Positions 30,725 to 54,636 are shown, counted from the first letter of the stretch. The stretch is DNA of 64,000 nt from Bacteroidota bacterium (GCA_037131955.1 JBAXQC010000007.1:3004-67003), one strand, 5' to 3'. A program made the numbers and translations. The notes: generated by a model from the sequence alone, not told the origin.

Positions 30725-32572
30725 ATGGCAAAGGAAAACAATTACGACGACGATAGTATAAAGAGTCTTGACTGGAAAGAACACATCCGTTTAAGACCCG
30801 GAATGTATATTGGTAAACTAGGAGATGGTTCTGCCCACGATGATGGAATTTATATTCTTATCAAGGAAATTATAGACAACAGTATTGATGAGTTTGTGAT
30901 GGGAAATGGAAAGAAAATAGAACTTTCCATCAAAGATAAAACAGTTACAATTAGAGATTATGGGCGAGGAATTCCATTAGGAAAAGTTATTGACTGCGTT
31001 TCAAAAATAAATACAGGCGCAAAGTATGATTCCGAAGCATTTAAAAAATCTGTTGGATTAAACGGTGTTGGTACAAAAGCAGTAAATGCCTTATCTTCTT
31101 ATTTTAAAGTACAATCAATTAGAGAGGGCAAATCAAAACTTGTAGAATTTGCAGACGGTGCAATTACAAAAGACAATAAAATTACCGATAGTACGGAAAA
31201 ACAAGGCACTATAATATCATTTACCCCTTCCGAAAAAATATTTGGAAAATTTCACTTCATACATGAATATGTAGAACAAATGATTTGGAATTATGCCTAC
31301 TTAAATACTGGATTAAGCATACAATACAATGGAAAAAGTTATTTTTCTGAAAGAGGCTTATATGATTTGTTGAATCAAAATTTAAGCGGAAATATTTTAT
31401 ACCCAATAATCCATTTAAAGGGCTATGATATAGAGTTGGCATTTACTCACGGGGCGCAGTATGGCGAAGAATATTATTCATTTGTAAACGGACAGCATAC
31501 AACGCAAGGAGGAACTCACCAAAATGCTTTTAGAGAAGCCATGGTAAAAACCGTTAGGGAATTTTACAAAAAAGATTTTGATGCTGTAGATGTTAGAACT
31601 TCCATAGTAGCTGCCGTTAGTATAAAGGTTCAAGAACCAGTTTTTGAATCGCAAACAAAAACTAAATTAGGCTCTCAGGATATTGCAATTGGTGGTCAGT
31701 CTGTAAGAGCATTTATTGGAGATTTTATAAAGAGAGAGTTAGACAATTACCTTCACAAAAATTCTGAAACTGCAGATTTACTTTATCAAAAAATTGTTCA
31801 ATCAGAAAAAGAAAGAAAAGAGCTATCTGGCATTAGAAAACTTGCACGTGAAAGAGCTAAGAAGGCAAGTTTACACAACAAAAAATTAAGAGACTGTAAA
31901 GTCCATTTCAATTCTAATGACGAAAGAAAATTAGAAACAACATTGTTTATTACAGAAGGTGATTCGGCAAGCGGTTCTATTACCAAATCCAGAGATGTTG
32001 CATCGCAAGCAGTATTTAGTTTAAAAGGGAAACCACTAAATTGCTACGGACTTACAAAAAAAATAGTTTACGAAAACGAGGAATTTAATTTGTTGCAAAG
32101 TGCTTTAAACATCGAAGATGGCTTAGATGATTTAAGATACAACAACATTGTAATTGCTACAGATGCAGATGTGGATGGTATGCACATTCGATTACTATTG
32201 ATTACTTTTTTTCTTCAATTTTTTCCTGACTTAGTTAAAAATGGTCACTTATATATTCTTCAAACGCCATTGTTTAGAGTTAGAAATAAAAAGAAAACAA
32301 ATTATTGCTATACCGAAGAAGAAAGAGTAAGCTCAATAAATGAATTGGGGCCAAAGCCAGAAATAACAAGATTTAAAGGATTAGGAGAAATTTCTCCAGA
32401 TGAATTTAAAAATTTTATTGGAAAGGATATTCGTCTAGAGCCTGTAATTGTTGATAAAAATACCAGTTTAGAAGAAATTCTTTCTTATTACATGGGAAAA
32501 AATACTCCAACAAGACAAGAATTTATCATTGAAAATCTAAGGTTAGAAAAAGATTTAGTAGAAGAAGTTTAA
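30725..32572 (+). CDS. parE: DNA topoisomerase IV subunit B (type IIA topoisomerase ATPase subunit)
   Basis: 615 aa with GHKL ATPase, transducer and TOPRIM domains. It is short for GyrB and has ParE-like length. Confidence 0.8.
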
Positions 32573-41917: not shown

Positions 41918-42107
41918 TTTTAAATAGAAATTAAGGAAAGCGTTGTAAGTAATCTCCTCGTTTTATTGCTATTGTATAAACGTGGCCAAAGATAAATTTT
42001 CTCTGTTTTTAGGGCCGTTAGAGTAAGTCCTATCTGCAAACAAAGACTATTTTAGGATTTATATATCTGTACAAACTCCGTTAATAACAAAGTGTAAAAA
42101 ATAAGAA

Positions 42108-42141
42108 CAAAAAAAAGCCCAAATTCATTTGAATTTGGGCT
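42108..42141 (-). terminator. Rho-independent terminator ending the minus-strand rpmB-rpmG-DUF4295 unit (hairpin is palindromic, possibly bidirectional)
   Basis: Stem GCCCAAATTCA/TGAATTTGGGC at 42117-42140. Plus-strand A8 at 42109-42116 gives a U-run on the minus transcript. Confidence 0.65.
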
Positions 42142-42161
42142 TTAGCTTGCATTGAGCAAAA

Positions 42162-42314
42162 TTATTTACTCAAAAAATCTTTTACGTGATCGTTGTGAAC
42201 GATTTCTTCCTTAAAAGCATAAGAACCAGTTTTAGGTGATTTTACCATTTTTATAACTTTAGTAAAATTATTTCCTTTTCCTGATTTAAGGGTAGCAACA
42301 ACTTTCTTTGCCAT
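42162..42314 (-). CDS. Small DUF4295-like protein (50 aa; not in ORF track, found manually)
   Basis: Minus-strand translation MAKKVVATLKSGKGNNFTKVIKMVKSPKTGSYAFKEEIVHNDHVKDFLSK*, directly downstream of rpmG. Confidence 0.5.
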   Translation of the reverse strand: MAKKVVATLKSGKGNNFTKVIKMVKSPKTGSYAFKEEIVHNDHVKDFLSK

Positions 42315-42329
42315 GTTTTTACGTTTTTA

Positions 42330-42512
42330 TTATTTAATTTCTTTGTGAACTGTTACTTTTCTTAAAATTGGATTAAATTTCTTTAATTCCATTCTATCAG
42401 GGGTATTACGTTTGTTTTTTGTAGTAATATACCTGCTTGTTCCGGGTACTCCCGAAGTTTTATGTTCGGTACACTCTAGTATAACCTGAACTCTGTTTCC
42501 TCTTTTTGCCAT
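42330..42512 (-). CDS. rpmG: 50S ribosomal protein L33
   Basis: 60 aa ([18 protein letters not shown]...) of typical L33 sequence. Confidence 0.9.
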
Positions 42513-42530
42513 TTCTTAAATGTATTTAGA

Positions 42531-42767
42531 TTAACGTAAATGACCTTTTTCTACCGCTTGTTTAAGAACAGCAGAAATACCTTTTCTGTTAATAGTTTTT
42601 ATAGCCGAAGTAGATACTTTTAAAGTAATCCACATATCATCCTCTGGGATGTAGAATTTTTTCAACTGCAAATTTGGATTGAATCTTCTCTTAGTTTTGT
42701 GGTTAGAGAAAGAAACTTTATTTCCTACAATTGCTTTTTTTCCTGTTAAGTCGCAAACACGTGCCAT
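42531..42767 (-). CDS. rpmB: 50S ribosomal protein L28
   Basis: 78 aa (MARVCDLTGKKAIVGNKVSFSNHKTKRRFNPNLQ...) of canonical L28 sequence. Confidence 0.9.
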   Translation of the reverse strand: MARVCDLTGKKAIVGNKVSFSNHKTKRRFNPNLQLKKFYIPEDDMWITLKVSTSAIKTINRKGISAVLKQAVEKGHLR

Positions 42768-42970
42768 TTATAAAAGCGTTTTAAATTTTTGGACTGCAAA
42801 GAAAAGAATTATTATTAGAACATACAAATTTTTTTGATAATTAAATTACGTTGCTTGTATATAACTAAATCGCTGATTTTTAAATTGTTGTTATTATAAA
42901 ATTTGAATTCTGAAAATGGAACGCAAGAAATTTTAAAGTCAAAGACTTTGCAAACTCATTTTAACTTAAA

Positions 42971-42997
42971 ACAAAAAAGTCGGAATTTACTCCGACT
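42971..42997 (-). terminator. Rho-independent terminator downstream of sucD (minus strand)
   Basis: Stem GTCGGA(42979-42984)/TCCGAC(42991-42996). Plus-strand A6 at 42973-42978 gives a U-run on the minus transcript. Confidence 0.55.
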
Positions 42998-43024
42998 CAT
43001 TTGCTAAAATATTTTGAATTGAAT

Positions 43025-44135: not shown

Positions 44136-47100
44136 ATGAAGAAAGAAAATAGAGTTTTTAGGTTGGTGTTTCTGTTTGTTTTAGTGGCAACATTTTTTGT
44201 CAAGGCTCAAAAAACCACCATATACGTTAATCCTTCGGCACAATTAAATGAAGGAATATATTTATTTGAGCAGCAAAAATTTGTGTCTGCACAAAAGGCA
44301 TTGCAAGATGCCATTCCACTTTTTGCACCTTATTCCAAAGAAAGAGTAGATGCCGAGTTTTACATGGCATACTGTGCTTACGAATTGTTTAACGAGGATA
44401 CAGAGCCGCTGCTTTTAGAGTTTATTCAAAATCATCCCGAAAGCAATCGATCTAATTTGGCTATATTCTTAATTGGAAATTATTATTACAGAAACAAACA
44501 ATTAAAATTAGCATTGGCTTGGTACGAAAAAACAGAACCTGCAAAATTAAATTCAACACAAAGAGCAGAGCTCTATTTTAAAAAAGGATATTGCTATTTT
44601 ATGAAAGAGCAATACAGCAAAGCAAAACCATTGTTTGCAGAAATAAAAGACATTGAAAATACTTACGCAGCTCCTGCAACCTACTACTATTCGCACATAG
44701 CATATCTTGAGAAAAAGTATGAAATTGCTTTAGAAGGGTTTAAAAAATTCAGTAAAAATTCTACGTTTGGTCCAATAGTTCCCTACTACATTGCTCAAAT
44801 ATATTTCTATCAAAAAAAATATGATTTGGTAATAGAATATGGAATTCCAATATTGGATTCAACATCAACAAAAAGAGCCCCTGAAATTTCTAGACTTATT
44901 GGAGATTCTTATTATAAAACTGACAGATTTGAAGCAGCAATTCCTTATTTAGAAAAATATGTTGCAGGAAAAGGAAAGATGGAAAGACCAGATTTTTACG
45001 AGTACGGCTACGTTTACTATCAATCAAAAAATTACGACAAAGGAATAGAATATTTTCAAAAAGCAATTTCCGATAAAAGCGATAGTTTGTCTCAATTGAG
45101 CTATTATCACATTGGAGATTGCTATTATAAATCCAGTAAAAAAGAATTGGCAAGAAATTCTTTTGGCACCGCTTCAAAAATGGATTTTGAATTAAATGTA
45201 AAAGAAGATGCATTGTTTAATTATGCAAAGCTAGCGTATGAGCTGGAGTCAGATCCCTTTCATAATGCAATTACTGCGTTTAAAACATACCTCAAGTTGT
45301 ATCCAAAGTCAGATAAATACGACGAAGCATTTAATTTTTTAGTAAACGCCTTTTTGCGTTCAAGAAATTATACCGAGGCACTAAATGCTCTGGATGAGAT
45401 GCCAACAAAAACTTTGGCTTTGAAATTGGCTTATCAAAAATTGTCGTACTTAAAAGCAACAGAATATTTTAATAATGCTAAATACAACGATGCCATTGCT
45501 TTTTACAACAAATCTATGTTGTACGACAAAGATAAAAACCTAAAAGGGCAATCGGTGTATTGGAAAGGAGAAAGTTTTTTTCAGCTGAACGAAATTGATT
45601 CTGCAATTTTTTGTTTCAAAGATTTTTTGTTTTCTGCAATAGCGCCAAGTTTAGATATTTATCATGTTGCAAATTATTCTTTGGCCTATTGCTACCATTC
45701 CAGAAAACAATACGAACAAGCAAATAATTTTTTTAGAAAATTTATTGCATTAGCGCCAACAAAAGAAGGAAAAAAAATTACTGATGCAGCAATAAGAGTG
45801 GCAGATGGCTATTTTATGAACAGAGATTTTGCCGGTGCTCTAGAGTATTATACCATGGCCCAAGAATACAATAATTTTAATGTAGATTATATTTTGTATC
45901 AAAAAGCATTGGTTTTAGGCTTGTATGGAAAGAACGACGAAAAGGTAATCACACTTACTAAATTAATAGAGCAACATCCTAAGTCATCCTATATAGATGA
46001 TGGAATTTATGAATTGGCAGAGTGTTATTTAATTAAAAATGACAATCAACAGTCATTAGAGAATTTCAATAAATTAATTAGCACATTTCCTTCCAGTGTT
46101 TTGGTAAAAAAGGCACAAATGAAGGTTGCACTTATTTATAGAAATATAGACCAAGATGATAAAGCACTGGCAGCATACCAAGAAATTGTTACAAAATATC
46201 CAAACTCAGCTGAGTCAAACCAAGCTTTAAATTCAATTAGAGATATTTATGTTTCCGAAGGTAGGGTAGAAGAATTTGAAAAGTTTATCTCTTCTGTTCC
46301 AACACTTAAATTCCAAAACAGCGCTATTGATTCTGCTATGTACGAATCGGCAGAACTTAAATACATGAAAGGCGATTGCGAGACTTCTTCCAAAGCATTT
46401 GATACATATTTAAACAAATTTGAAAATGCAATTTTTGCATTAAGGGCAAACTATTTTAAAGCTGACTGCGATTATAAAAAAGGAAATTTAATTGAAGCAT
46501 TAAAGGGATTTGAATTTGTTGCATCCAAACAATCCTCCAGCTATACCGAAAAATCTGTACAATTAGCGGCTTATATCAATTATAAAAATAAAGAATTGGC
46601 CAAAGCTCTTCAATATTATCAGCAATTAGAAAAAGTATCTTCTGGCCCGGTAACACTTGCCGAAAGTAATGTTGGACAAATGAGGTGTAACATTAAATTA
46701 GGAAATTTTGATGAAGCAATTGTTGCAGCAAATAAGGTTCAGGCAGACGAAAAGAGCAGCAATGAATTAATAGCAGAAAGCTATTTAACAAAAGCAAAAT
46801 CATATTTAAAATTAAGGAGAGATTCACTAGCTATAAGGGAATTAAAAAATACTATAGCTAAAACAAAAAGCGAAAAAAGTGCAGAATCAAAGTTTTTGAT
46901 GGCAGAATTATATTTTAATAATGCCGATTACGAAAACTCAAAAAAGCAAGTTGATGAATTGCTTGAGCAAGATCCATCGTATGATTTTTGGGTTACAAAA
47001 GCGTACATTTTATATGCAGAAATATTTTATGCTAAAGAAGATGTTTTTAATGCAAAAGAAACATTGCAAAGTGTGATAGATAATTCAGAAAACACCGAAC

Positions 47101-47249
47101 TAGTAGAATTATCAAAAAGTAAACTAAATGCAATTATAGAAGCAGAAAAAAACAAAGAAGAAAAGTATAAGCAAGATGCTTTAGAAATAAAATTTGATAC
47201 AAATTCGTTTAAAGACAATCAACTATTTGAAGATGAAAACAAGGAATAA
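44136..47249 (+). CDS. Large secreted tetratricopeptide-repeat (TPR) protein
   Basis: 1037 aa with a signal peptide (no lipoprotein Cys) and >15 TPR-like helical repeats along its length. Confidence 0.75.
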   Translation: MKKENRVFRLVFLFVLVATFFVKAQKTTIYVNPSAQLNEGIYLFEQQKFVSAQKALQDAIPLFAPYSKERVDAEFYMAYCAYELFNEDTEPLLLEFIQNHPESNRSNLAIFLIGNYYYRNKQLKLALAWYEKTEPAKLNSTQRAELYFKKGYCYFMKEQYSKAKPLFAEIKDIENTYAAPATYYYSHIAYLEKKYEIALEGFKKFSKNSTFGPIVPYYIAQIYFYQKKYDLVIEYGIPILDSTSTKRAPEISRLIGDSYYKTDRFEAAIPYLEKYVAGKGKMERPDFYEYGYVYYQSKNYDKGIEYFQKAISDKSDSLSQLSYYHIGDCYYKSSKKELARNSFGTASKMDFELNVKEDALFNYAKLAYELESDPFHNAITAFKTYLKLYPKSDKYDEAFNFLVNAFLRSRNYTEALNALDEMPTKTLALKLAYQKLSYLKATEYFNNAKYNDAIAFYNKSMLYDKDKNLKGQSVYWKGESFFQLNEIDSAIFCFKDFLFSAIAPSLDIYHVANYSLAYCYHSRKQYEQANNFFRKFIALAPTKEGKKITDAAIRVADGYFMNRDFAGALEYYTMAQEYNNFNVDYILYQKALVLGLYGKNDEKVITLTKLIEQHPKSSYIDDGIYELAECYLIKNDNQQSLENFNKLISTFPSSVLVKKAQMKVALIYRNIDQDDKALAAYQEIVTKYPNSAESNQALNSIRDIYVSEGRVEEFEKFISSVPTLKFQNSAIDSAMYESAELKYMKGDCETSSKAFDTYLNKFENAIFALRANYFKADCDYKKGNLIEALKGFEFVASKQSSSYTEKSVQLAAYINYKNKELAKALQYYQQLEKVSSGPVTLAESNVGQMRCNIKLGNFDEAIVAANKVQADEKSSNELIAESYLTKAKSYLKLRRDSLAIRELKNTIAKTKSEKSAESKFLMAELYFNNADYENSKKQVDELLEQDPSYDFWVTKAYILYAEIFYAKEDVFNAKETLQSVIDNSENTELVELSKSKLNAIIEAEKNKEEKYKQDALEIKFDTNSFKDNQLFEDENKE

Positions 47250-48984
47250 AAAATATTTAAACTTGAAGTTTTTACTGCTGGTTATTTGTTTTCCTGTAAT
47301 TGTTGTAGCACAAAAAAGCGAAGGAAATTTAGGTGCTGAGCAAGTAAATGTAGTTCAAGGTTACAGCCCAACAGTTGCAGAGGCAGTAAAAATTAATGAT
47401 AATCCTGTTGTAAAAGATACTGTAGCGCCTGCTCCAAGAATTAAGTATTCGTTTTTACAAACAAAAATGGAAACTAATTTTATTCCTGATACCATTAAGC
47501 CCGCAAAAATGAGAGGAGAACCATTGGCGAAATTGTATCCGGGATTACTAAAAGTTGGTTTAGGAAATTATTCTACTCCTTTTGGAGAATTGTACTTAGG
47601 TAGTTTACGTTCAAAAACATATCAAGTGGGTGTGCATGTTAAACATTTTTCTTCTAACTATACAGCAAAGAACAGAGGCGATGCAGGGTTTAGCGATAAC
47701 TTGGCAGTTGCTAATGGTAAATATTTTGTAAAAGAACACATTTTGGCTGCAGAAATTGGATACAATAGAAATGCAAATAGATTTTACGGATACACTAATC
47801 GTTTGTTCGAAAATTATTTTGATACACTAAATAACAAGCAATTTTATCAATCGTTTAATACCACTGCAAGTGTTGAGAGTAGATTTGCAGATACAAATTT
47901 ATTACGTCACAAAGAAAAAATACATTACCGCTATACCAATGATAGATGGAGTTCCAGAGAGAATAATTTTTTAGTTTCAACAGAACTCAGTAAAAGATAT
48001 GGCAATGAAATTTACGGTGGTGCTTTGGAATGGAATCATTTTAATTATTTAATTTCACCTGAAGTAATAAGTGGTTTAACACCCATAAAGGCAGACATCT
48101 TAAAATTAAATCCTTTTGTAAAAGTTAGAAACAAGAGGTGGAATGCCGTTTTAGGAATTAATATGTTTTACGAAGTTCAAGACCAGTTTATACATTTTTT
48201 TCCTAATGTTTTGGTTAATGCCGTGCTTTGGGAAAATGTTGCTTCGGCATATTTATCAGTGAATGGAGCAACTACTAGAAACAGTTTTTATTCTGTATCG
48301 CAAATTAATCCATTTATAATTACACCATTAAATACATTTAATACCAATACGCCAATAGATGCATTGTTGGGTGTAAAAGGAAAAATAAGCAAAGAGCTCT
48401 CGTATAATGTTTCTGGTAATTACAAACTCATTCAAAACATGCCTTTATTTGTAAATCAAATAAATTATTTTGCTAACTATAATCAGGAAGACGCTCCAGG
48501 AAATATACCGCATGATTTTAGGTATATTTTAATTGACGACGATTGCAATTACTTTAATGTTTCAGGATTTTTGTCGTATGAATTAAACTCAAAAATAGTT
48601 GTTGATTTAAAAGGTAATTATTACAACTATAAAATGGCAACAGAGCAAAAGGCTTGGTTTAAACCTTTGTATGATATTTCTTTGGCTGCAAATTACAGAT
48701 TAGAAGAAAAGTTTAATTTTAAGTTAAATGTATTTTATATTGGTCAGCAATTTGGAAAAAGAGTTTACCCAAATAGCAATTTCACTGGATTAATTCCAGA
48801 TAATTTTGATGCATACAAAATCAAATCATGGGTTGACCTAAATCTGGGAGCAAACTATCAATACAATAAAAGGTTAGGGGCTTTCGTTTCTGTAAATAAT
48901 ATCTTAGGAACAAGGTATCAAAGATGGTTAGATTATCCCACTCAATCGTTTAATTTTTTGATAGGAGCAACACTATCTTTTTAA
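47233..48984 (+). CDS. Hypothetical outer-membrane beta-barrel protein
   Basis: Signal peptide after MKTRNKKY... and alternating amphipathic beta-strand sequence, with a C-terminal ...LIGATLSF (terminal Phe). The start overlaps the TPR gene's end by 17 nt. The track's 47194 start is rejected. Confidence 0.5.
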   Translation: MKTRNKKYLNLKFLLLVICFPVIVVAQKSEGNLGAEQVNVVQGYSPTVAEAVKINDNPVVKDTVAPAPRIKYSFLQTKMETNFIPDTIKPAKMRGEPLAKLYPGLLKVGLGNYSTPFGELYLGSLRSKTYQVGVHVKHFSSNYTAKNRGDAGFSDNLAVANGKYFVKEHILAAEIGYNRNANRFYGYTNRLFENYFDTLNNKQFYQSFNTTASVESRFADTNLLRHKEKIHYRYTNDRWSSRENNFLVSTELSKRYGNEIYGGALEWNHFNYLISPEVISGLTPIKADILKLNPFVKVRNKRWNAVLGINMFYEVQDQFIHFFPNVLVNAVLWENVASAYLSVNGATTRNSFYSVSQINPFIITPLNTFNTNTPIDALLGVKGKISKELSYNVSGNYKLIQNMPLFVNQINYFANYNQEDAPGNIPHDFRYILIDDDCNYFNVSGFLSYELNSKIVVDLKGNYYNYKMATEQKAWFKPLYDISLAANYRLEEKFNFKLNVFYIGQQFGKRVYPNSNFTGLIPDNFDAYKIKSWVDLNLGANYQYNKRLGAFVSVNNILGTRYQRWLDYPTQSFNFLIGATLSF

Positions 48985-49031
48985 TTTAGTAATTGCGGAT
49001 ACCTTTATTTGCTAGGAACATATAATTTTAT

Positions 49032-50477
49032 ATGATAAGATTTTGTTTTCTTTTTGTTTTTTCGTTTAGTTTTTCATTGGCTCAAGTTTCAAAAAGCACG
49101 GAGATAAAATCTTCTTCTATCATAGGAAGCTCTGCTATAAATGGTGAAGCATTGTTAGAAATTACGCCAAAGAGAATTGAAAAATTTAAGGTTGAAAAAA
49201 ATAAATCAAACGAAGTAAATTTTAGTGTTCCGTTTGCAGGTGCACAAATAGAAAATAAGAAGGACAAAAAGAAATTGAGAGACAAAATAATTCTAAGTGT
49301 TCAATTGTATTATTCTTCCTATAAATTAGCTAAAGATTTTTCTCAACCTATTTTAAATAAATCAAGGTTTGATTCCTTACTTAAGATTATGCCTTCGCTC
49401 AAGAAAAATACATACGTAAAATGGGAAGTTTTTGAGCAAACTGGTGCTAAAAAAGAAGAAGACGCAAAGAAATTATTTCACGGATTTAGAATTACATATT
49501 GTGATGCTCCAACTGAGGAATCGGCAAGTGATGAATTGGACTATTTTAAGAGAGTTTTAAGCCTGGATTCTTTGGGTTCATTTGAGAATATTGTTGAAGA
49601 AAAATATAAGATAAAAGCAAAGACATTTAAAACTGGTTACGATCCAATTTTAAAAAGCAGAAAAGAAAAGAAAATTGTTTACAGTAAAAAAGGAATACTC
49701 AACAGGAAAGAACATATTGATGTTGCTGCACCAGAAACTACAATTATTAAGAAAGTAGTTGGTCGTAGATATATTCCGCCCAAAGGACTTTCAATAGATT
49801 ATGAAGGATTTAGGTCTCCATTAGGCATTCCTTACGTTAAACAGCATTTAGATTCTACAGTATTTAAGGCATTAAGCAGAATTAACATCACTACAAATAA
49901 CACCTTAATTGTGGTTGATGTAACCGGCAGCATGGCACCTTATTCTTTACAGATTTGCTTGTGGAATAGACTAAATTTTAAAACTGGTGAGTCTAACCAT
50001 TATGTTTTATTTAATGACGGCGATGCCAAGAGCACTAATCAAAAGAAGATAGGAAGCACAGGTGGTGTATATCCAATTAAAATTGACTCAGTAATCGATC
50101 TCGAAAAAAATATGATTAAGGTAATGCAACGTGGATTTGGCGGTGATATTCCGGAAAACAATTTGGAAGCAATTATCGCTGGAATCAAAAAATTTCCAAA
50201 TACAAAAGAAGTCATTATGATAGCTGATAATTTTGCAGCTGTTAGAGACATGGTGTTGCTAGAAAAAATTAAAACTCCGGTGAAAGTTATTTTATGTGGC
50301 GTTTACGATTTACGATACAATTGTGATTATTTAAATATTGCAAAACAAACCAAAGGAAGTTTGCATACAATGGAAAATGATTACATCAATTTACATTCCA
50401 TAAAAGAAGGGGAAGTGCTAGAAATGAAAGGGTTTAACTATAAGTTAATAAAAGGCAAATTTCAGCCGGTGTTCTAG
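49032..50477 (+). CDS. Secreted protein with a C-terminal von Willebrand factor A (vWA)-like domain
   Basis: 481 aa with a signal peptide. A MIDAS-like motif LIVVDVTGSM sits in a Rossmann-like alternating pattern. Confidence 0.45.
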   Translation: MIRFCFLFVFSFSFSLAQVSKSTEIKSSSIIGSSAINGEALLEITPKRIEKFKVEKNKSNEVNFSVPFAGAQIENKKDKKKLRDKIILSVQLYYSSYKLAKDFSQPILNKSRFDSLLKIMPSLKKNTYVKWEVFEQTGAKKEEDAKKLFHGFRITYCDAPTEESASDELDYFKRVLSLDSLGSFENIVEEKYKIKAKTFKTGYDPILKSRKEKKIVYSKKGILNRKEHIDVAAPETTIIKKVVGRRYIPPKGLSIDYEGFRSPLGIPYVKQHLDSTVFKALSRINITTNNTLIVVDVTGSMAPYSLQICLWNRLNFKTGESNHYVLFNDGDAKSTNQKKIGSTGGVYPIKIDSVIDLEKNMIKVMQRGFGGDIPENNLEAIIAGIKKFPNTKEVIMIADNFAAVRDMVLLEKIKTPVKVILCGVYDLRYNCDYLNIAKQTKGSLHTMENDYINLHSIKEGEVLEMKGFNYKLIKGKFQPVF

Positions 50478-50537
50478 AAATATTGCAAAATAACTTTACT
50501 TTTGAACACTAACACAATCACTTAATTAGAAAATAAC

Positions 50538-53246
50538 ATGAAAAAATTTATAAAAATAGCTGCCCTTGTTTTTGTTTTAATGTTTGCTGTTTTAATTTCC
50601 ATACCTTTTTTATTCAAAGATAAAATTGTTGCAAAAGTTAAGGAAGAAGCAAATAAAAATTTAAACGCTACCGTAAATTTTGGTGAATTTGACATTTCAA
50701 TCATTTCCTCATTTCCTAATTTAAAATTCTCAATAAACGAACTTAGTATTATTGGCAAAGATGATTTTTTAGGAGATACATTAATTTTCTCCAAGATTAC
50801 AGCGTTAAATTTGAATTTGATGAGTGTGATAAAAGGAGAAAAATATCAAATAAATTCGATAGTAATAAATAATGCTACAATTAATGCATTGGTTAATAAA
50901 TTAGGGAAGGCAAATTGGGACATTTCAAAACCAAGCGAACCAAGCGCTCCAAGTGCTGAATCTAGTAATTTTAAAATGCAACTTTCCAAGTTTGAAATTC
51001 AAAATTCAAAGATCGTTTACGACGACAAACAGATGGGTTTTAAAACAAAATTAATTGGATTGAACCATACATTAAGGGGAGATTTTACTCAGGATGTTTT
51101 TTTAATGGAAACGTTTACAGAAATTGAAAAATGGTCTATGATGTATGGAGGTATCGCCTATCTGAAAAACGTTAGAACAAAAATTAAAGCAGATCTAGAT
51201 GCAAATATGCCTGAATTTAAATTTACATTTAAAAAGAACGAATTTGAGTTGAATGATTTAAAGTTAGGACTAGACGGATACTTTGCAATGCCCAAAGAAG
51301 ACATGGACATGGATTTGAAATTTAATTGTGCACAAACAAGTTTTGCAAGTTTTCTTTCGTTGATTCCAGGCTGCTATACCGCCGATTTTAAAGATATAAA
51401 AACAAAAGGAAGTTTTTCATTGTCGGCTTTTGTTAAAGGTATTTATAATGATAAAAAAATGCCTGCATTCGCCATAGATTTAATCGTTTCAAATGCCAGC
51501 TTTCAATACCCTTCATTGCCAAAATCAGTTAACAACATTAACCTTGACGTTAAAGTAAAAAATCCCAATGGAAATCCTGATAGAACCGCAATTGATATAA
51601 ATAAATTTCATGCAGAGATGGGCAACAATCCTTTAGATGTGGCCATGCATATTTTAACTCCAGTAAGCGATCCCTTTGTTGATGGTACAATTAAAGGAAG
51701 AGTTGATTTGAATTCGATAAAAGAATTTGTTCCATTAGAAAGCGATCAAAAATTAAGCGGGGTAATTACTGCTGATGTTTATTTAAGAGGAAATAAATCT
51801 ACTATCGACAACAAAAAATATTCTGAATTTATTGCAAAGGGAAATTTTATGGTAGAGAACATGAATTATGTAAGTAAAGAAATTCCTTACGGCATGTCTA
51901 TTTCAAAAGCAGTATTAAACTTTACTCCTAAAGCTGCAGAGCTAACTCAGTTTAATTCTAAAATTGGAAAAAGTGATTTAAATGCATCAGGTAAAATTGA
52001 AAATTTTATTGGTTATGCTCTAGCAGACGAAAAGCTGAAAGGTAAATTTTTAGTGAATTCAAATTACCTTGATGTGAATGAAATAATGGGAGAGCAAACT
52101 ACTCCTGAAACAGCAGCAGATACCTCTAAGTCAGGCATTGTAGAAGTTCCTGCAAACATAGATTTTGAGCTAGACGGAAATTTTTCTAGAATGTTGTACA
52201 GCAACATGGACATGAGAAATGTAAAAGGTAAGATAGTAGTCAGAGACAGCAAGGTTTCTATGCAAGATTTATTTATGCTTTTATTAGACGGTTCAATGGT
52301 ATTAAATGGTAGTTATTCTACTGCTAATCTTAAAAAGCCCGAAGTAGATTTTAGCATGAAAATAGATAATTTTGATTTATCAAAAACTGTAAAAACTTTC
52401 AATACCATAGAAAAATTAGCCCCCATAGCAAAACAATCTAATGGTAAATTCTCTACTTTATTGGCTTTTACATCTAATTTAAAACAGGACATGAGTCCGG
52501 AGCTTACCACTTTAAATGGTGAGGGCAAACTACAAACCAAGCAATTAGTTATAACAAACTTTCCTATGTTCAGTAAAATTGCCGATGCTATTAAAATGCC
52601 AGAGTATAAAAACCTGCCATTAAATAATACTAATCTTTCATTTTCTTTTAAGAATGGGAGAGTTAACGTACAGCCGTTTGACGTTAAAATAAAAAATTCT
52701 GTATTTAATATTGGGGGTTCACAAGGATTTGATCAAACAATAGATTATAAAGTAAAAGCAGAGGTGCAAACAAAAGATTTAGGGGCCGGAGCAAATCAAG
52801 TGGCCTCTAACCTAACAGCATTGGCGAACTCAAAAGGAGCAAATTTTTCTGTTGGAGATAAAATTACTTTAAATATGGTTGTTACAGGAACTGTGGCGGA
52901 TCCAAAATTAGATGCTGGTTTATCTGATTTAAAGAATAATTTAAAAGATCAGGCAAGAGCAGAGTTAGAGAAAAAGAAAAAGGAGTTAGAAGATAAAGCA
53001 AGAGCAGAAGCAGATAAAAAGAAGGCAGAGTTGGAGAATAAAGCCAATGCAGAACTCGAAAAGAAGAAAACAGAATTGGAGGCAAAGAGAAAAGCAGAAG
53101 AAGATAAACTAAAAGCAGAGGCAGATAAAAAGAAGAAAGAATTAGAGGAAAAAGCAAAAGCAGAAGCAGAAAAAAAGAAAAAAGAAGTAGAGGATAAAGC
53201 TAAAAAAGAAGCAGAGAAAAAGCTGAAAGGCTTATTTGGAAAATAG
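50538..53246 (+). CDS. AsmA family (TamB/AsmA-like) envelope protein with a C-terminal Lys/Glu-rich tandem-repeat coiled coil
   Basis: 902 aa with an N-terminal TM anchor and an AsmA-like beta-rich body. About six 15-aa repeats (ARAELEKKKKELEDK...) at the C-terminus. Confidence 0.55.
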   Translation: MKKFIKIAALVFVLMFAVLISIPFLFKDKIVAKVKEEANKNLNATVNFGEFDISIISSFPNLKFSINELSIIGKDDFLGDTLIFSKITALNLNLMSVIKGEKYQINSIVINNATINALVNKLGKANWDISKPSEPSAPSAESSNFKMQLSKFEIQNSKIVYDDKQMGFKTKLIGLNHTLRGDFTQDVFLMETFTEIEKWSMMYGGIAYLKNVRTKIKADLDANMPEFKFTFKKNEFELNDLKLGLDGYFAMPKEDMDMDLKFNCAQTSFASFLSLIPGCYTADFKDIKTKGSFSLSAFVKGIYNDKKMPAFAIDLIVSNASFQYPSLPKSVNNINLDVKVKNPNGNPDRTAIDINKFHAEMGNNPLDVAMHILTPVSDPFVDGTIKGRVDLNSIKEFVPLESDQKLSGVITADVYLRGNKSTIDNKKYSEFIAKGNFMVENMNYVSKEIPYGMSISKAVLNFTPKAAELTQFNSKIGKSDLNASGKIENFIGYALADEKLKGKFLVNSNYLDVNEIMGEQTTPETAADTSKSGIVEVPANIDFELDGNFSRMLYSNMDMRNVKGKIVVRDSKVSMQDLFMLLLDGSMVLNGSYSTANLKKPEVDFSMKIDNFDLSKTVKTFNTIEKLAPIAKQSNGKFSTLLAFTSNLKQDMSPELTTLNGEGKLQTKQLVITNFPMFSKIADAIKMPEYKNLPLNNTNLSFSFKNGRVNVQPFDVKIKNSVFNIGGSQGFDQTIDYKVKAEVQTKDLGAGANQVASNLTALANSKGANFSVGDKITLNMVVTGTVADPKLDAGLSDLKNNLKDQARAELEKKKKELEDKARAEADKKKAELENKANAELEKKKTELEAKRKAEEDKLKAEADKKKKELEEKAKAEAEKKKKEVEDKAKKEAEKKLKGLFGK
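52950..53225 (+). repeat. Coding tandem repeat: about six imperfect 45-nt units encoding the K/E/A-rich 15-aa repeats of the AsmA-like tail
   Basis: The units gcaagagcagagttagagaaaaagaaaaaggagttagaagataaa, gcaagagcagaagcagataaaaagaaggcagagttggagaataaa and so on are visible in frame. Confidence 0.7.
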
Positions 53247-53247
53247 T

Positions 53248-54636
53248 TTATTTTTTTAGATGTTGTTTTCTTAAATCTCTTTCGGGCAAGCCTTTTATTG
53301 CATTATCAGAATCCGTAGGTATAAGTGTGTTATCGTAGCCATCGAACCAATTATTTTTCCAGAATATTTTAAAGTAAGTTTCCTTGCTCATGCTATCGTA
53401 GTGCAAAAGAGAAGAGGTATATTGTTTTGTTTGAAATATATTTAATTGAATTCCAAAAATTACTAATAGTGCAACAGCTTGTTGCACAATTGCATTTGAT
53501 TTTAAAATTTGGCTAACTGCAGCACACATTGGTATTGCAAGCAAGGGGAAAGAATCTATAAGTGCCCTTTGGCTAAAACTTCCTCCATACCACCAGCACC
53601 ACCAACAAGATATTATATAAAGATTTAATGGAATAAAAATATACAATACAGTGCTCCATTGTTTGGTATATTGTTTAAGAAAAATAATCCCAACAAATCC
53701 TAAAATAATTAGTGGTGTATAAATAAAAAGTCCTTTTCTCCAACTAAATAAAATATCATATAAATGAGGATTTGTCCAGAAAAAATTTTCACCTGTGTAA
53801 GAATAAAAAAAATAACTCCCTGTTTGCATTTTCCAATAGAAAAATTGAGGTATCCAAATTGTTATTCCTGCTATTAAAATGAGAATTATGTGTAAATAAT
53901 TTTTTAGATATAGGTTAACTCTTGTTTGAAATTCTTTTAAAGAGTTTACGTCATAAAGTAAAAATGCTGTTCCTATGATAATATTAGTTGGTCTTATAAG
54001 CGAAATTAAGCCCAGGGTTAAACCAATACCAATGGCGTTTATAATTGTCTTGTTTTTATGCCAATTAACTGTTAGTAGGAGAAATAAAGAAAAAAGAAAA
54101 AAAGAATAAGCATGGCTCATTAGCACATCATGAGTAACGTAGCAAAATAAATTTGTTCCAATTCCTAAAATTATTAATGTAATTCCAACTGCAGTGTTGT
54201 TAAAAAAGTTGAGCAATAATTTTCTCAAAAAAAGTAAACCTAGAAAAGCGTAAAGCAAAGTTCCAATTACTAACCATGACTTATAATGTTGGGTAAAGCC
54301 ATTTGCCTTATATACCTTTGAGTTTAGACTTGCGTTGTGTCCTATTGCAAAGAAAGGACTGTACAACATTGCCATCCCCATTGTCATTTTAAAGTACTTT
54401 TTTCCTTCAGGAGTTTTTAAGTGCCAATAGCTATTGTTAGGTATATTTTGCATGGTATCTAAAAACTTCAAGCTTAAATCGTGGTGTATAAAATATGCGG
54501 GTAAATAGCTATAATATTGTATTACATCGCTAGAGATAATATCTTGTTCTTCTCTGTTGTTTTGTTTTTGTGTAAAAAGCCATGCTATTAAACAAATAAA
54601 CAACGCAGTTATACTTAAATCAAATTTGTGTTTCAT
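53248..54636 (-). CDS. Polytopic integral membrane protein, GT-C-like glycosyltransferase architecture (hypothetical)
   Basis: 462 aa with ~12 predicted TM helices and Trp/Tyr-rich loops, resembling GT39/ArnT-like proteins. Confidence 0.35.
   Translation of the reverse strand: MKHKFDLSITALFICLIAWLFTQKQNNREEQDIISSDVIQYYSYLPAYFIHHDLSLKFLDTMQNIPNNSYWHLKTPEGKKYFKMTMGMAMLYSPFFAIGHNASLNSKVYKANGFTQHYKSWLVIGTLLYAFLGLLFLRKLLLNFFNNTAVGITLIILGIGTNLFCYVTHDVLMSHAYSFFLFSLFLLLTVNWHKNKTIINAIGIGLTLGLISLIRPTNIIIGTAFLLYDVNSLKEFQTRVNLYLKNYLHIILILIAGITIWIPQFFYWKMQTGSYFFYSYTGENFFWTNPHLYDILFSWRKGLFIYTPLIILGFVGIIFLKQYTKQWSTVLYIFIPLNLYIISCWWCWWYGGSFSQRALIDSFPLLAIPMCAAVSQILKSNAIVQQAVALLVIFGIQLNIFQTKQYTSSLLHYDSMSKETYFKIFWKNNWFDGYDNTLIPTDSDNAIKGLPERDLRKQHLKK

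Follow-up and report, generated by a model that had tools for sequence, protein, structure and literature searches.

The four co-directional genes at positions 44,136 to 53,246 of the window (the whole 64,000-nt stretch of Bacteroidota DNA analysed here) are probably a lineage-specific juxtaposition of three envelope units, among which the functional unit would be formed by the first two genes, encoding a ~1000-aa tetratricopeptide repeat (TPR) protein and a barrel protein that together would make a split outer-membrane complex. The TPR protein and the barrel are made together and evolve together, and their genes are an ancient, widespread two-gene operon in Flavobacteriales, Bacteroidales, and Chitinophagales-type genomes; a full-text literature search found no paper describing the pair. 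The mechanism proposed below proceeds in order of falling support, from the joint production and evolution of the two proteins (observed), through an inferred complex, to a speculative conduit or platform.

Synteny of the TPR–barrel pair

ORF calls place the four genes on the + strand at the positions given in the initial annotation. The TPR gene (44136..47249; 1037 aa) is followed by the barrel gene (47233..48984, from the ORF 47194/47233-48984; 583 aa, with a signal peptide at aa 1-26), the ATG of which at 47233 (MKTRNKKY...) falls within the last 17 nt of the TPR ORF, and the TPR stop codon (TAA) occupies 47247-47249; this 17-nt overlap (47233..47249, + strand) is likely a translational-coupling junction. 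Gaps of 47 and 60 nt, also as first described, follow the barrel gene and the gene for a secreted 481-aa von Willebrand factor A (vWA) protein (49032..50477, + strand), respectively, and the last gene encodes a 902-aa AsmA-family protein (50538..53246, + strand). Four close co-directional genes are by themselves no more than is expected by chance in a bacterial genome.

The distribution of the pair rests on 80 loci, obtained by scanning one genome per GTDB species with the barrel motif alone (13-sequence alignment); the loci belong to Flavobacteriales (Vicingaceae, Crocinitomicaceae, Cryomorphaceae, Salibacteraceae, and others), Bacteroidales (Marinifilum, Ancylomarina, and many MAGs), and other Bacteroidia. 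A ~1000-aa TPR gene lies directly upstream of the barrel gene in all 77 loci that have upstream DNA (tblastn, with which independent ORF clustering agrees). The gap between the two has a median of 1 nt and is <=30 nt in 62 of 76 loci, with -8 overlaps being frequent, and the pairing is kept where barrel identity falls to 21% (L085). The coupling first proposed from the single junction in the window is therefore real and far more general than that junction. Pairwise distances among TPR proteins and among barrels are correlated (r=0.95; partial r=0.91 when controlling for the neighbouring FtsE-like protein), a mirror-tree result that shared phylogeny and saturation may inflate, and that we treat as supportive rather than as proof.

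A gene for an FtsE-like ABC ATPase (242 bits vs. the NCBIfam FtsE cut-off of 265) lies immediately upstream of the TPR gene, in divergent orientation, in 53 of 65 loci (e.g., L049:5349-6059, - strand), and gyrB is immediately downstream of the barrel gene in 23 of 72 loci. Neither gene is found near the pair in the window, which suggests that the region has been rearranged in this lineage. The window does encode, at 30725-32572, a 615-aa GyrB-family protein that is 32% identical to the gyrB product adjoining the pair in other loci; this is probably the ParE subunit of topoisomerase IV, not GyrB. Two to four genes upstream of the pair, subsets of loci (L033, L049, L011, and others) carry genes for a VimE-like deacetylase, a FemAB/GNAT-like protein, a GT4, and a GT2 (HfsG-like), which correspond to the recurring ORF clusters c18, c17, c4, and c14. 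In L081, an 841-aa outer-membrane protein with CarboxypepD_reg and DUF5686 domains (L081:1958-4483), of a type like T9SS PorF-like receptors, is encoded a few genes upstream of the pair. The contig CAVXOV010000051.1 (L020), labelled 'Candidatus Saccharibacteria', holds a Bacteroidota-type ftsE-TPR-barrel locus in which the TPR gene is seemingly split into two ORFs; this contig has probably been mis-binned.

In the window, the cluster is set among ordinary Bacteroidota housekeeping genes. PSP1, GldH, PcrB, and YqeY precede it, and the minus strand nearby carries rpmB, rpmG, a short DUF4295-like gene, and sucD; what seems to be an ORF-free gap at 41918-43024 (- strand) is occupied by the rpmB-like (78 aa), rpmG-like (60 aa), and DUF4295-like (50 aa) genes, an ordinary arrangement. 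Downstream are genes for a convergent multi-pass membrane protein, a DUF218 protein, an AraC regulator, and a BBP2 porin. The multi-pass membrane protein (53248-54636, - strand; 462 aa) converges on the AsmA-family gene such that the stop codons are one base apart; it has no Pfam match and only weakly resembles the LA_3751/LA_3752 putative glycosyltransferase model (26 bits vs. a cut-off of 200). Rfam and tRNA scans of the window gave no matches. The presence of a type IX secretion system (T9SS) in the organism is shown by several T9SS cargo proteins encoded in the window. Identical proteins are present in freshwater Bacteroidota MAGs, where the only labels are "hypothetical protein" or "tetratricopeptide repeat protein."

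The vWA and AsmA-family genes

The initial annotation had grouped the four genes as a single candidate outer-membrane assembly or surface-organelle module. On such a reading all four would be co-transcribed, at least in this clade, as an envelope module of TPR scaffold, barrel, vWA protein, and AsmA-like lipid transporter, which we regard as quite unlikely. L001 and L087, with barrel identities of 93% and 69%, respectively, are the only loci in which the vWA and AsmA-family genes both follow the barrel gene, in the order of the window; in L081 (56%) the order TPR-barrel-vWA is retained, with the start of the vWA gene overlapping the barrel stop, and the AsmA-family gene is replaced by phoH. 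Neither gene occurs within 10 kb downstream of the barrel gene in the other 79 scanned loci (L002-L080), which argues against a common module, as do homologues that stand by themselves: those of the vWA protein (35-40% identity) in L083, L089, and L090, and those of the AsmA-family protein (53-57% identity) in L088 and L091, the latter with another conserved neighbour. Hence, the proposed module is not conserved as such; its TPR and barrel genes co-occur throughout, whereas the vWA and AsmA-family genes are scattered beyond close relatives of the window. This sparse adjacency, together with the lone homologues, indicates that the four-gene order is a young, clade-specific arrangement.

The 47-nt and 60-nt gaps are free of terminator-like sites, which is consistent with co-transcription, although an 8-nt motif resembling a -7 box, TACTTTTG (50497..50504, + strand), lies in the vWA-AsmA gap and fits the Bacteroidota consensus TAnnTTTG, and thus argues weakly for a separate transcript. 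As a possible promoter of the AsmA-family gene itself this motif is a weak hint, and no more than that, because the Bacteroidota -7 motif occurs in the window at chance frequency (118 vs. 115 expected). Scans for sigma-70 promoters and terminators were uninformative (40 found vs. 43 expected).

The vWA gene is a lineage-specific neighbour that lies outside the conserved pair. In close relatives it is joined to the barrel gene as tightly as the TPR gene is, and the overlap of its start with the barrel stop in L081 suggests that the vWA protein may truly work with the pair in this clade. We envisage that the vWA protein would have joined the operon in one family-level clade, and that the AsmA-family gene would simply be adjacent in the closest relatives. 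Neither gene should be annotated as part of the TPR–barrel system.

The vWA (Rossmann-like) fold is present in the 481-aa protein at the C-terminus (approximately aa 290-445), with DxTGS at 296-300. Set against the MIDAS pattern DxSxS…T…D, D296-x-T298-G-S300 is invariant (with Thr replacing the first Ser), T343 is nearly invariant, and D399 is invariant; the Pfam VWA_4 match (E=0.005) is below the cut-off. The vWA-like domain (window 49899-50366) recurs at ~45% identity in Bacteroidota proteins of 500-560 aa (P0207, P0211, P0215, and others) that carry a TonB C-terminal domain (PF03544), a combination that recalls the 'vWA force transducers' proposed previously (PMC12204202).

For the AsmA-family protein of the window, Pfam gave no match at E<=10; its full-length homologues (50-57% identity) carry PF05170/PF05359 and are named as AsmA family, and a hydrophobic N-terminal membrane anchor is visible in the sequence. 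Identity with TamB was considered and rejected, with no DUF490 seen. The K/E/A-rich tail is encoded by imperfect tandem repeats (52941..53229, + strand) with periods of 45, 66, and 111 nt and 76-83% matches (TRF); family members share this conserved tail, including the KKLKGLFGK with which it ends. The domain calls made at the outset for all four proteins, namely TPR, barrel, vWA fold, and AsmA family with a tandem-repeat tail, hold up, that for the AsmA family by way of homologues. Downstream of the AsmA homologue in two unrelated genomes (L088:10820-12784 and L091:9829-11796) come genes for a PorE-like protein (TPR_17/PD40/OmpA, ~655 aa) and an ACP phosphodiesterase; AsmA-PorE may be a conserved neighbourhood.

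The TPR and barrel proteins

The TPR protein has strong Pfam TPR matches along its length (e.g., TPR_2, E=2e-34) and is conserved over the whole of that length (56 full-length homologues). Its N-terminus is a cleavable Sec signal peptide (…FFVKA|QKTT), which in most homologues ends in …AQK, and no lipobox Cys is present in the N-terminus (…VATFFVKAQK); from its sequence, the protein is expected to be the periplasmic partner in the conserved pair. A PDB sequence search gave no solved homologue, the matches being to generic or designed TPR proteins and, in one case, to CpoB. Assignment to PorW/SprE was rejected because the NF052312 score of 97.1 bits is far under the 250-bit cut-off, the lipobox is missing, and the conserved partner gene is another one; assignments to BatC, BamD, LapB, and PilW, all far below their cut-offs, were rejected as well. 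These results agree with the earlier view that the protein is not PorW/SprE and the gene set not BatA-E.

Five stretches of the TPR protein fit the NCBIfam CpoB/YbgF-like TPR model (141 bits). Along with the CpoB match in the PDB, the divergent FtsE-like ATPase gene that adjoins the pair across orders, and the report that Bacteroidetes have no identifiable tol-pal locus (PMC12204202), this could point to a pair that serves in envelope division or in coordination between outer membrane and peptidoglycan. We consider such a role unlikely, given that the model in question (TIGR02795) is essentially a generic TPR module, that the proximity of ftsE, not seen in the window, may reflect inherited gene order, and that the need for a barrel of the 22-strand class solely as an anchor is left unexplained.

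According to an AF2 model built on a 22-sequence alignment (A1; pLDDT 75), the barrel protein is an outer-membrane protein of the TonB-dependent-transporter structural class that has no canonical plug: its modelled fold is the 22-stranded barrel of those transporters, with beta-strands at residues 104-582 and low confidence for the N-terminal residues 24-97. Only ~75 residues separate the signal peptide from strand 1, and the mature protein is ~63 kDa. Neither the plug (PF07715) nor TonB_dep_Rec (PF00593) gave a Pfam match in the barrel even at E<=10, no Pfam or NCBIfam family was found when all 22 members of alignment A1 were scanned as well, and TIGR01783 scored 18 bits (E=9e-4; cut-off 223.5). 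A PDB search with the barrel profile gave no solved homologue; the C-terminal strands of PfeA were marginally similar (E=7e-4). HMM searches thus placed none of the four proteins in a well-characterised housekeeping family, an assignment that would have told against the module first proposed, and left the barrel without any family model. When 1.84 billion representatives at 50% identity were searched with the barrel profile, matches numbered 6,367 with E<=1e-3 and 2,739 with the stricter E<=1e-30; the barrel family is large and has no curated model.

Between the signal peptide and the strands, the barrel carries an extension of ~65 residues (aa 36-102; codons 47338..47538, + strand) that stands out by column conservation, with the motifs (E/T)VxVVxxYxPxIxDAxK … PxIxDT … IKPAKMKGEPLxKLY. 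Invariant residues among 80 sequences are Q27, P58, I88, A91, K92, E96, and P97, with Q27 at the A-Q signal cleavage site. The extension is unstructured (low pLDDT) in the monomer model and is better conserved than the barrel body (mean top-residue fraction, 0.56 vs. 0.47). From this conservation pattern, we propose that the TPR protein docks on the extension or that the extension is a mini-plug; instead of binding the TPR protein, it could serve as a small plug or a TonB-box-like element.

The latter option would fit a barrel that is a reduced TonB-dependent importer, with EVxVV as the TonB box, the extension as a mini-plug, and the TPR protein as a periplasmic accessory. The structural class of the barrel and the faint PfeA and TIGR01783 similarities are in keeping with this, as is the (E/T)-V/I-x-V-V-x-x-Y motif conserved at the mature N-terminus, a beta-strand-like element that we presume to resemble Bacteroidota TonB boxes and offer as a lead only. 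We rate an importer as rather improbable, however, on the grounds that PF07715 and PF00593 are not matched, that no tonB or exbBD gene lies nearby in the 80 loci, and that TonB-dependent transporters are not known to have a coupled 1000-aa TPR partner.

We favour instead the reading in which a soluble periplasmic TPR superhelix of ~1000 aa and the translationally coupled barrel would form one outer-membrane complex, with the TPR protein docking on the extended N-terminal segment of the barrel. The N-terminus of barrels in the TonB-dependent-transporter class is on the periplasmic side, TPR grooves are binding sites for extended peptides, and in fused TPR-barrel proteins (Slam, BcsC, PgaA, PelB, NfrA) the TPR part is attached to the N-terminus of the barrel. 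Docking is proposed because the barrel N-terminus and the TPR protein are both expected to be periplasmic, because TPR grooves can accept peptides, and because the gene order matches the domain order of the fused proteins; the complex would thereby be a split version of such "N-terminal TPR + C-terminal barrel" proteins. More speculatively, the complex might act at the outer membrane as a housekeeping gated conduit or as an assembly platform. Because a plug-less barrel of this width has to be gated, the extension, the TPR partner, or both may gate the conduit. The housekeeping context and wide distribution of the pair favour a core envelope role over that of an accessory exporter.

One specific form of a missing housekeeping machine, a Slam-like exporter that flips the abundant surface lipoproteins of Bacteroidota, is a long shot. 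In such an exporter, periplasmic cargo would be taken over by the TPR protein and would then leave through the wide barrel, which has no plug and would be gated by the N-terminal extension. Bacteroidota outer-membrane biogenesis departs from the proteobacterial textbook, with a distinct BAM complex and with TamL instead of TamA. As late as 2025, the machinery for flipping surface lipoproteins in Bacteroidota was described as an important question still to be resolved (PMC12578637). With thousands of sequence clusters and no family model, the pair is a testable candidate for a missing Bacteroidota envelope machine, and the barrel family merits a Pfam/NCBIfam model. We infer the function of the pair, and conserved hypothetical pairs are not rare.

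Comparison with known systems

Among large envelope TPR proteins of Bacteroidota, PorW/SprE resembles the TPR protein in kind, with partial HMM similarity (97 bits). The BatA-E systems combine the membrane vWA proteins BatA and BatB with the TPR protein BatC in a fixed order, which is not the arrangement found here. The barrel is akin to PorF/PG0534 of the Porphyromonas gingivalis T9SS in being a Bacteroidota outer-membrane protein of the TonB-dependent-receptor type. PorF/PG0534 has been described both as lacking a plug (PMC8564354) and as plug-containing (PMC12704123). Identity with this protein was set aside on size: PorF/PG0534 is 92 kDa (PMC5445135) compared with ~63 kDa for the mature barrel. 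No TPR partner has been reported for it. Unlike the TonB-dependent transporters BtuB, FhuA, and SusC/RagA, the barrel has neither a plug nor a match to the family HMM. To our knowledge, no TonB-dependent transporter is coupled to a giant TPR protein.

A TPR scaffold beneath an outer-membrane barrel is also found in AlgK/AlgE, BcsC, PgaA, PelB/PelC, and NfrA, and AlgK/AlgE, like the pair, consists of two proteins. It is very unlikely that the pair exports exopolysaccharide in the synthase-dependent manner of AlgK/AlgE, BcsC, PgaA, PelB, or NfrA: the TPR-plus-barrel logic is shared, and GT2, GT4, and deacetylase-like genes lie upstream in some loci, at a distance of two or three genes, but TPR-porin exporters of exopolysaccharide have a 16-18-strand porin and a polysaccharide-synthase operon, neither of which is found with the pair.

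Slam of Neisseria is like the pair in combining a periplasmic TPR part with an outer-membrane barrel, and the gene order of the pair is the same as the domain order of Slam. The DUF560 barrel of Slam is small, with 14 strands. Slam is one polypeptide with a DUF560 barrel, whereas the pair consists of two proteins, with a barrel of the TonB-dependent-transporter class and no DUF560 match; moreover, Slam adjoins genes for surface lipoproteins, whereas the pair has no linked lipoprotein substrate genes and has ftsE-like and gyrB genes as its neighbours. By analogy with these systems, the pair is most like a split form of the "periplasmic TPR + outer-membrane barrel" architecture, built with a different class of barrel.
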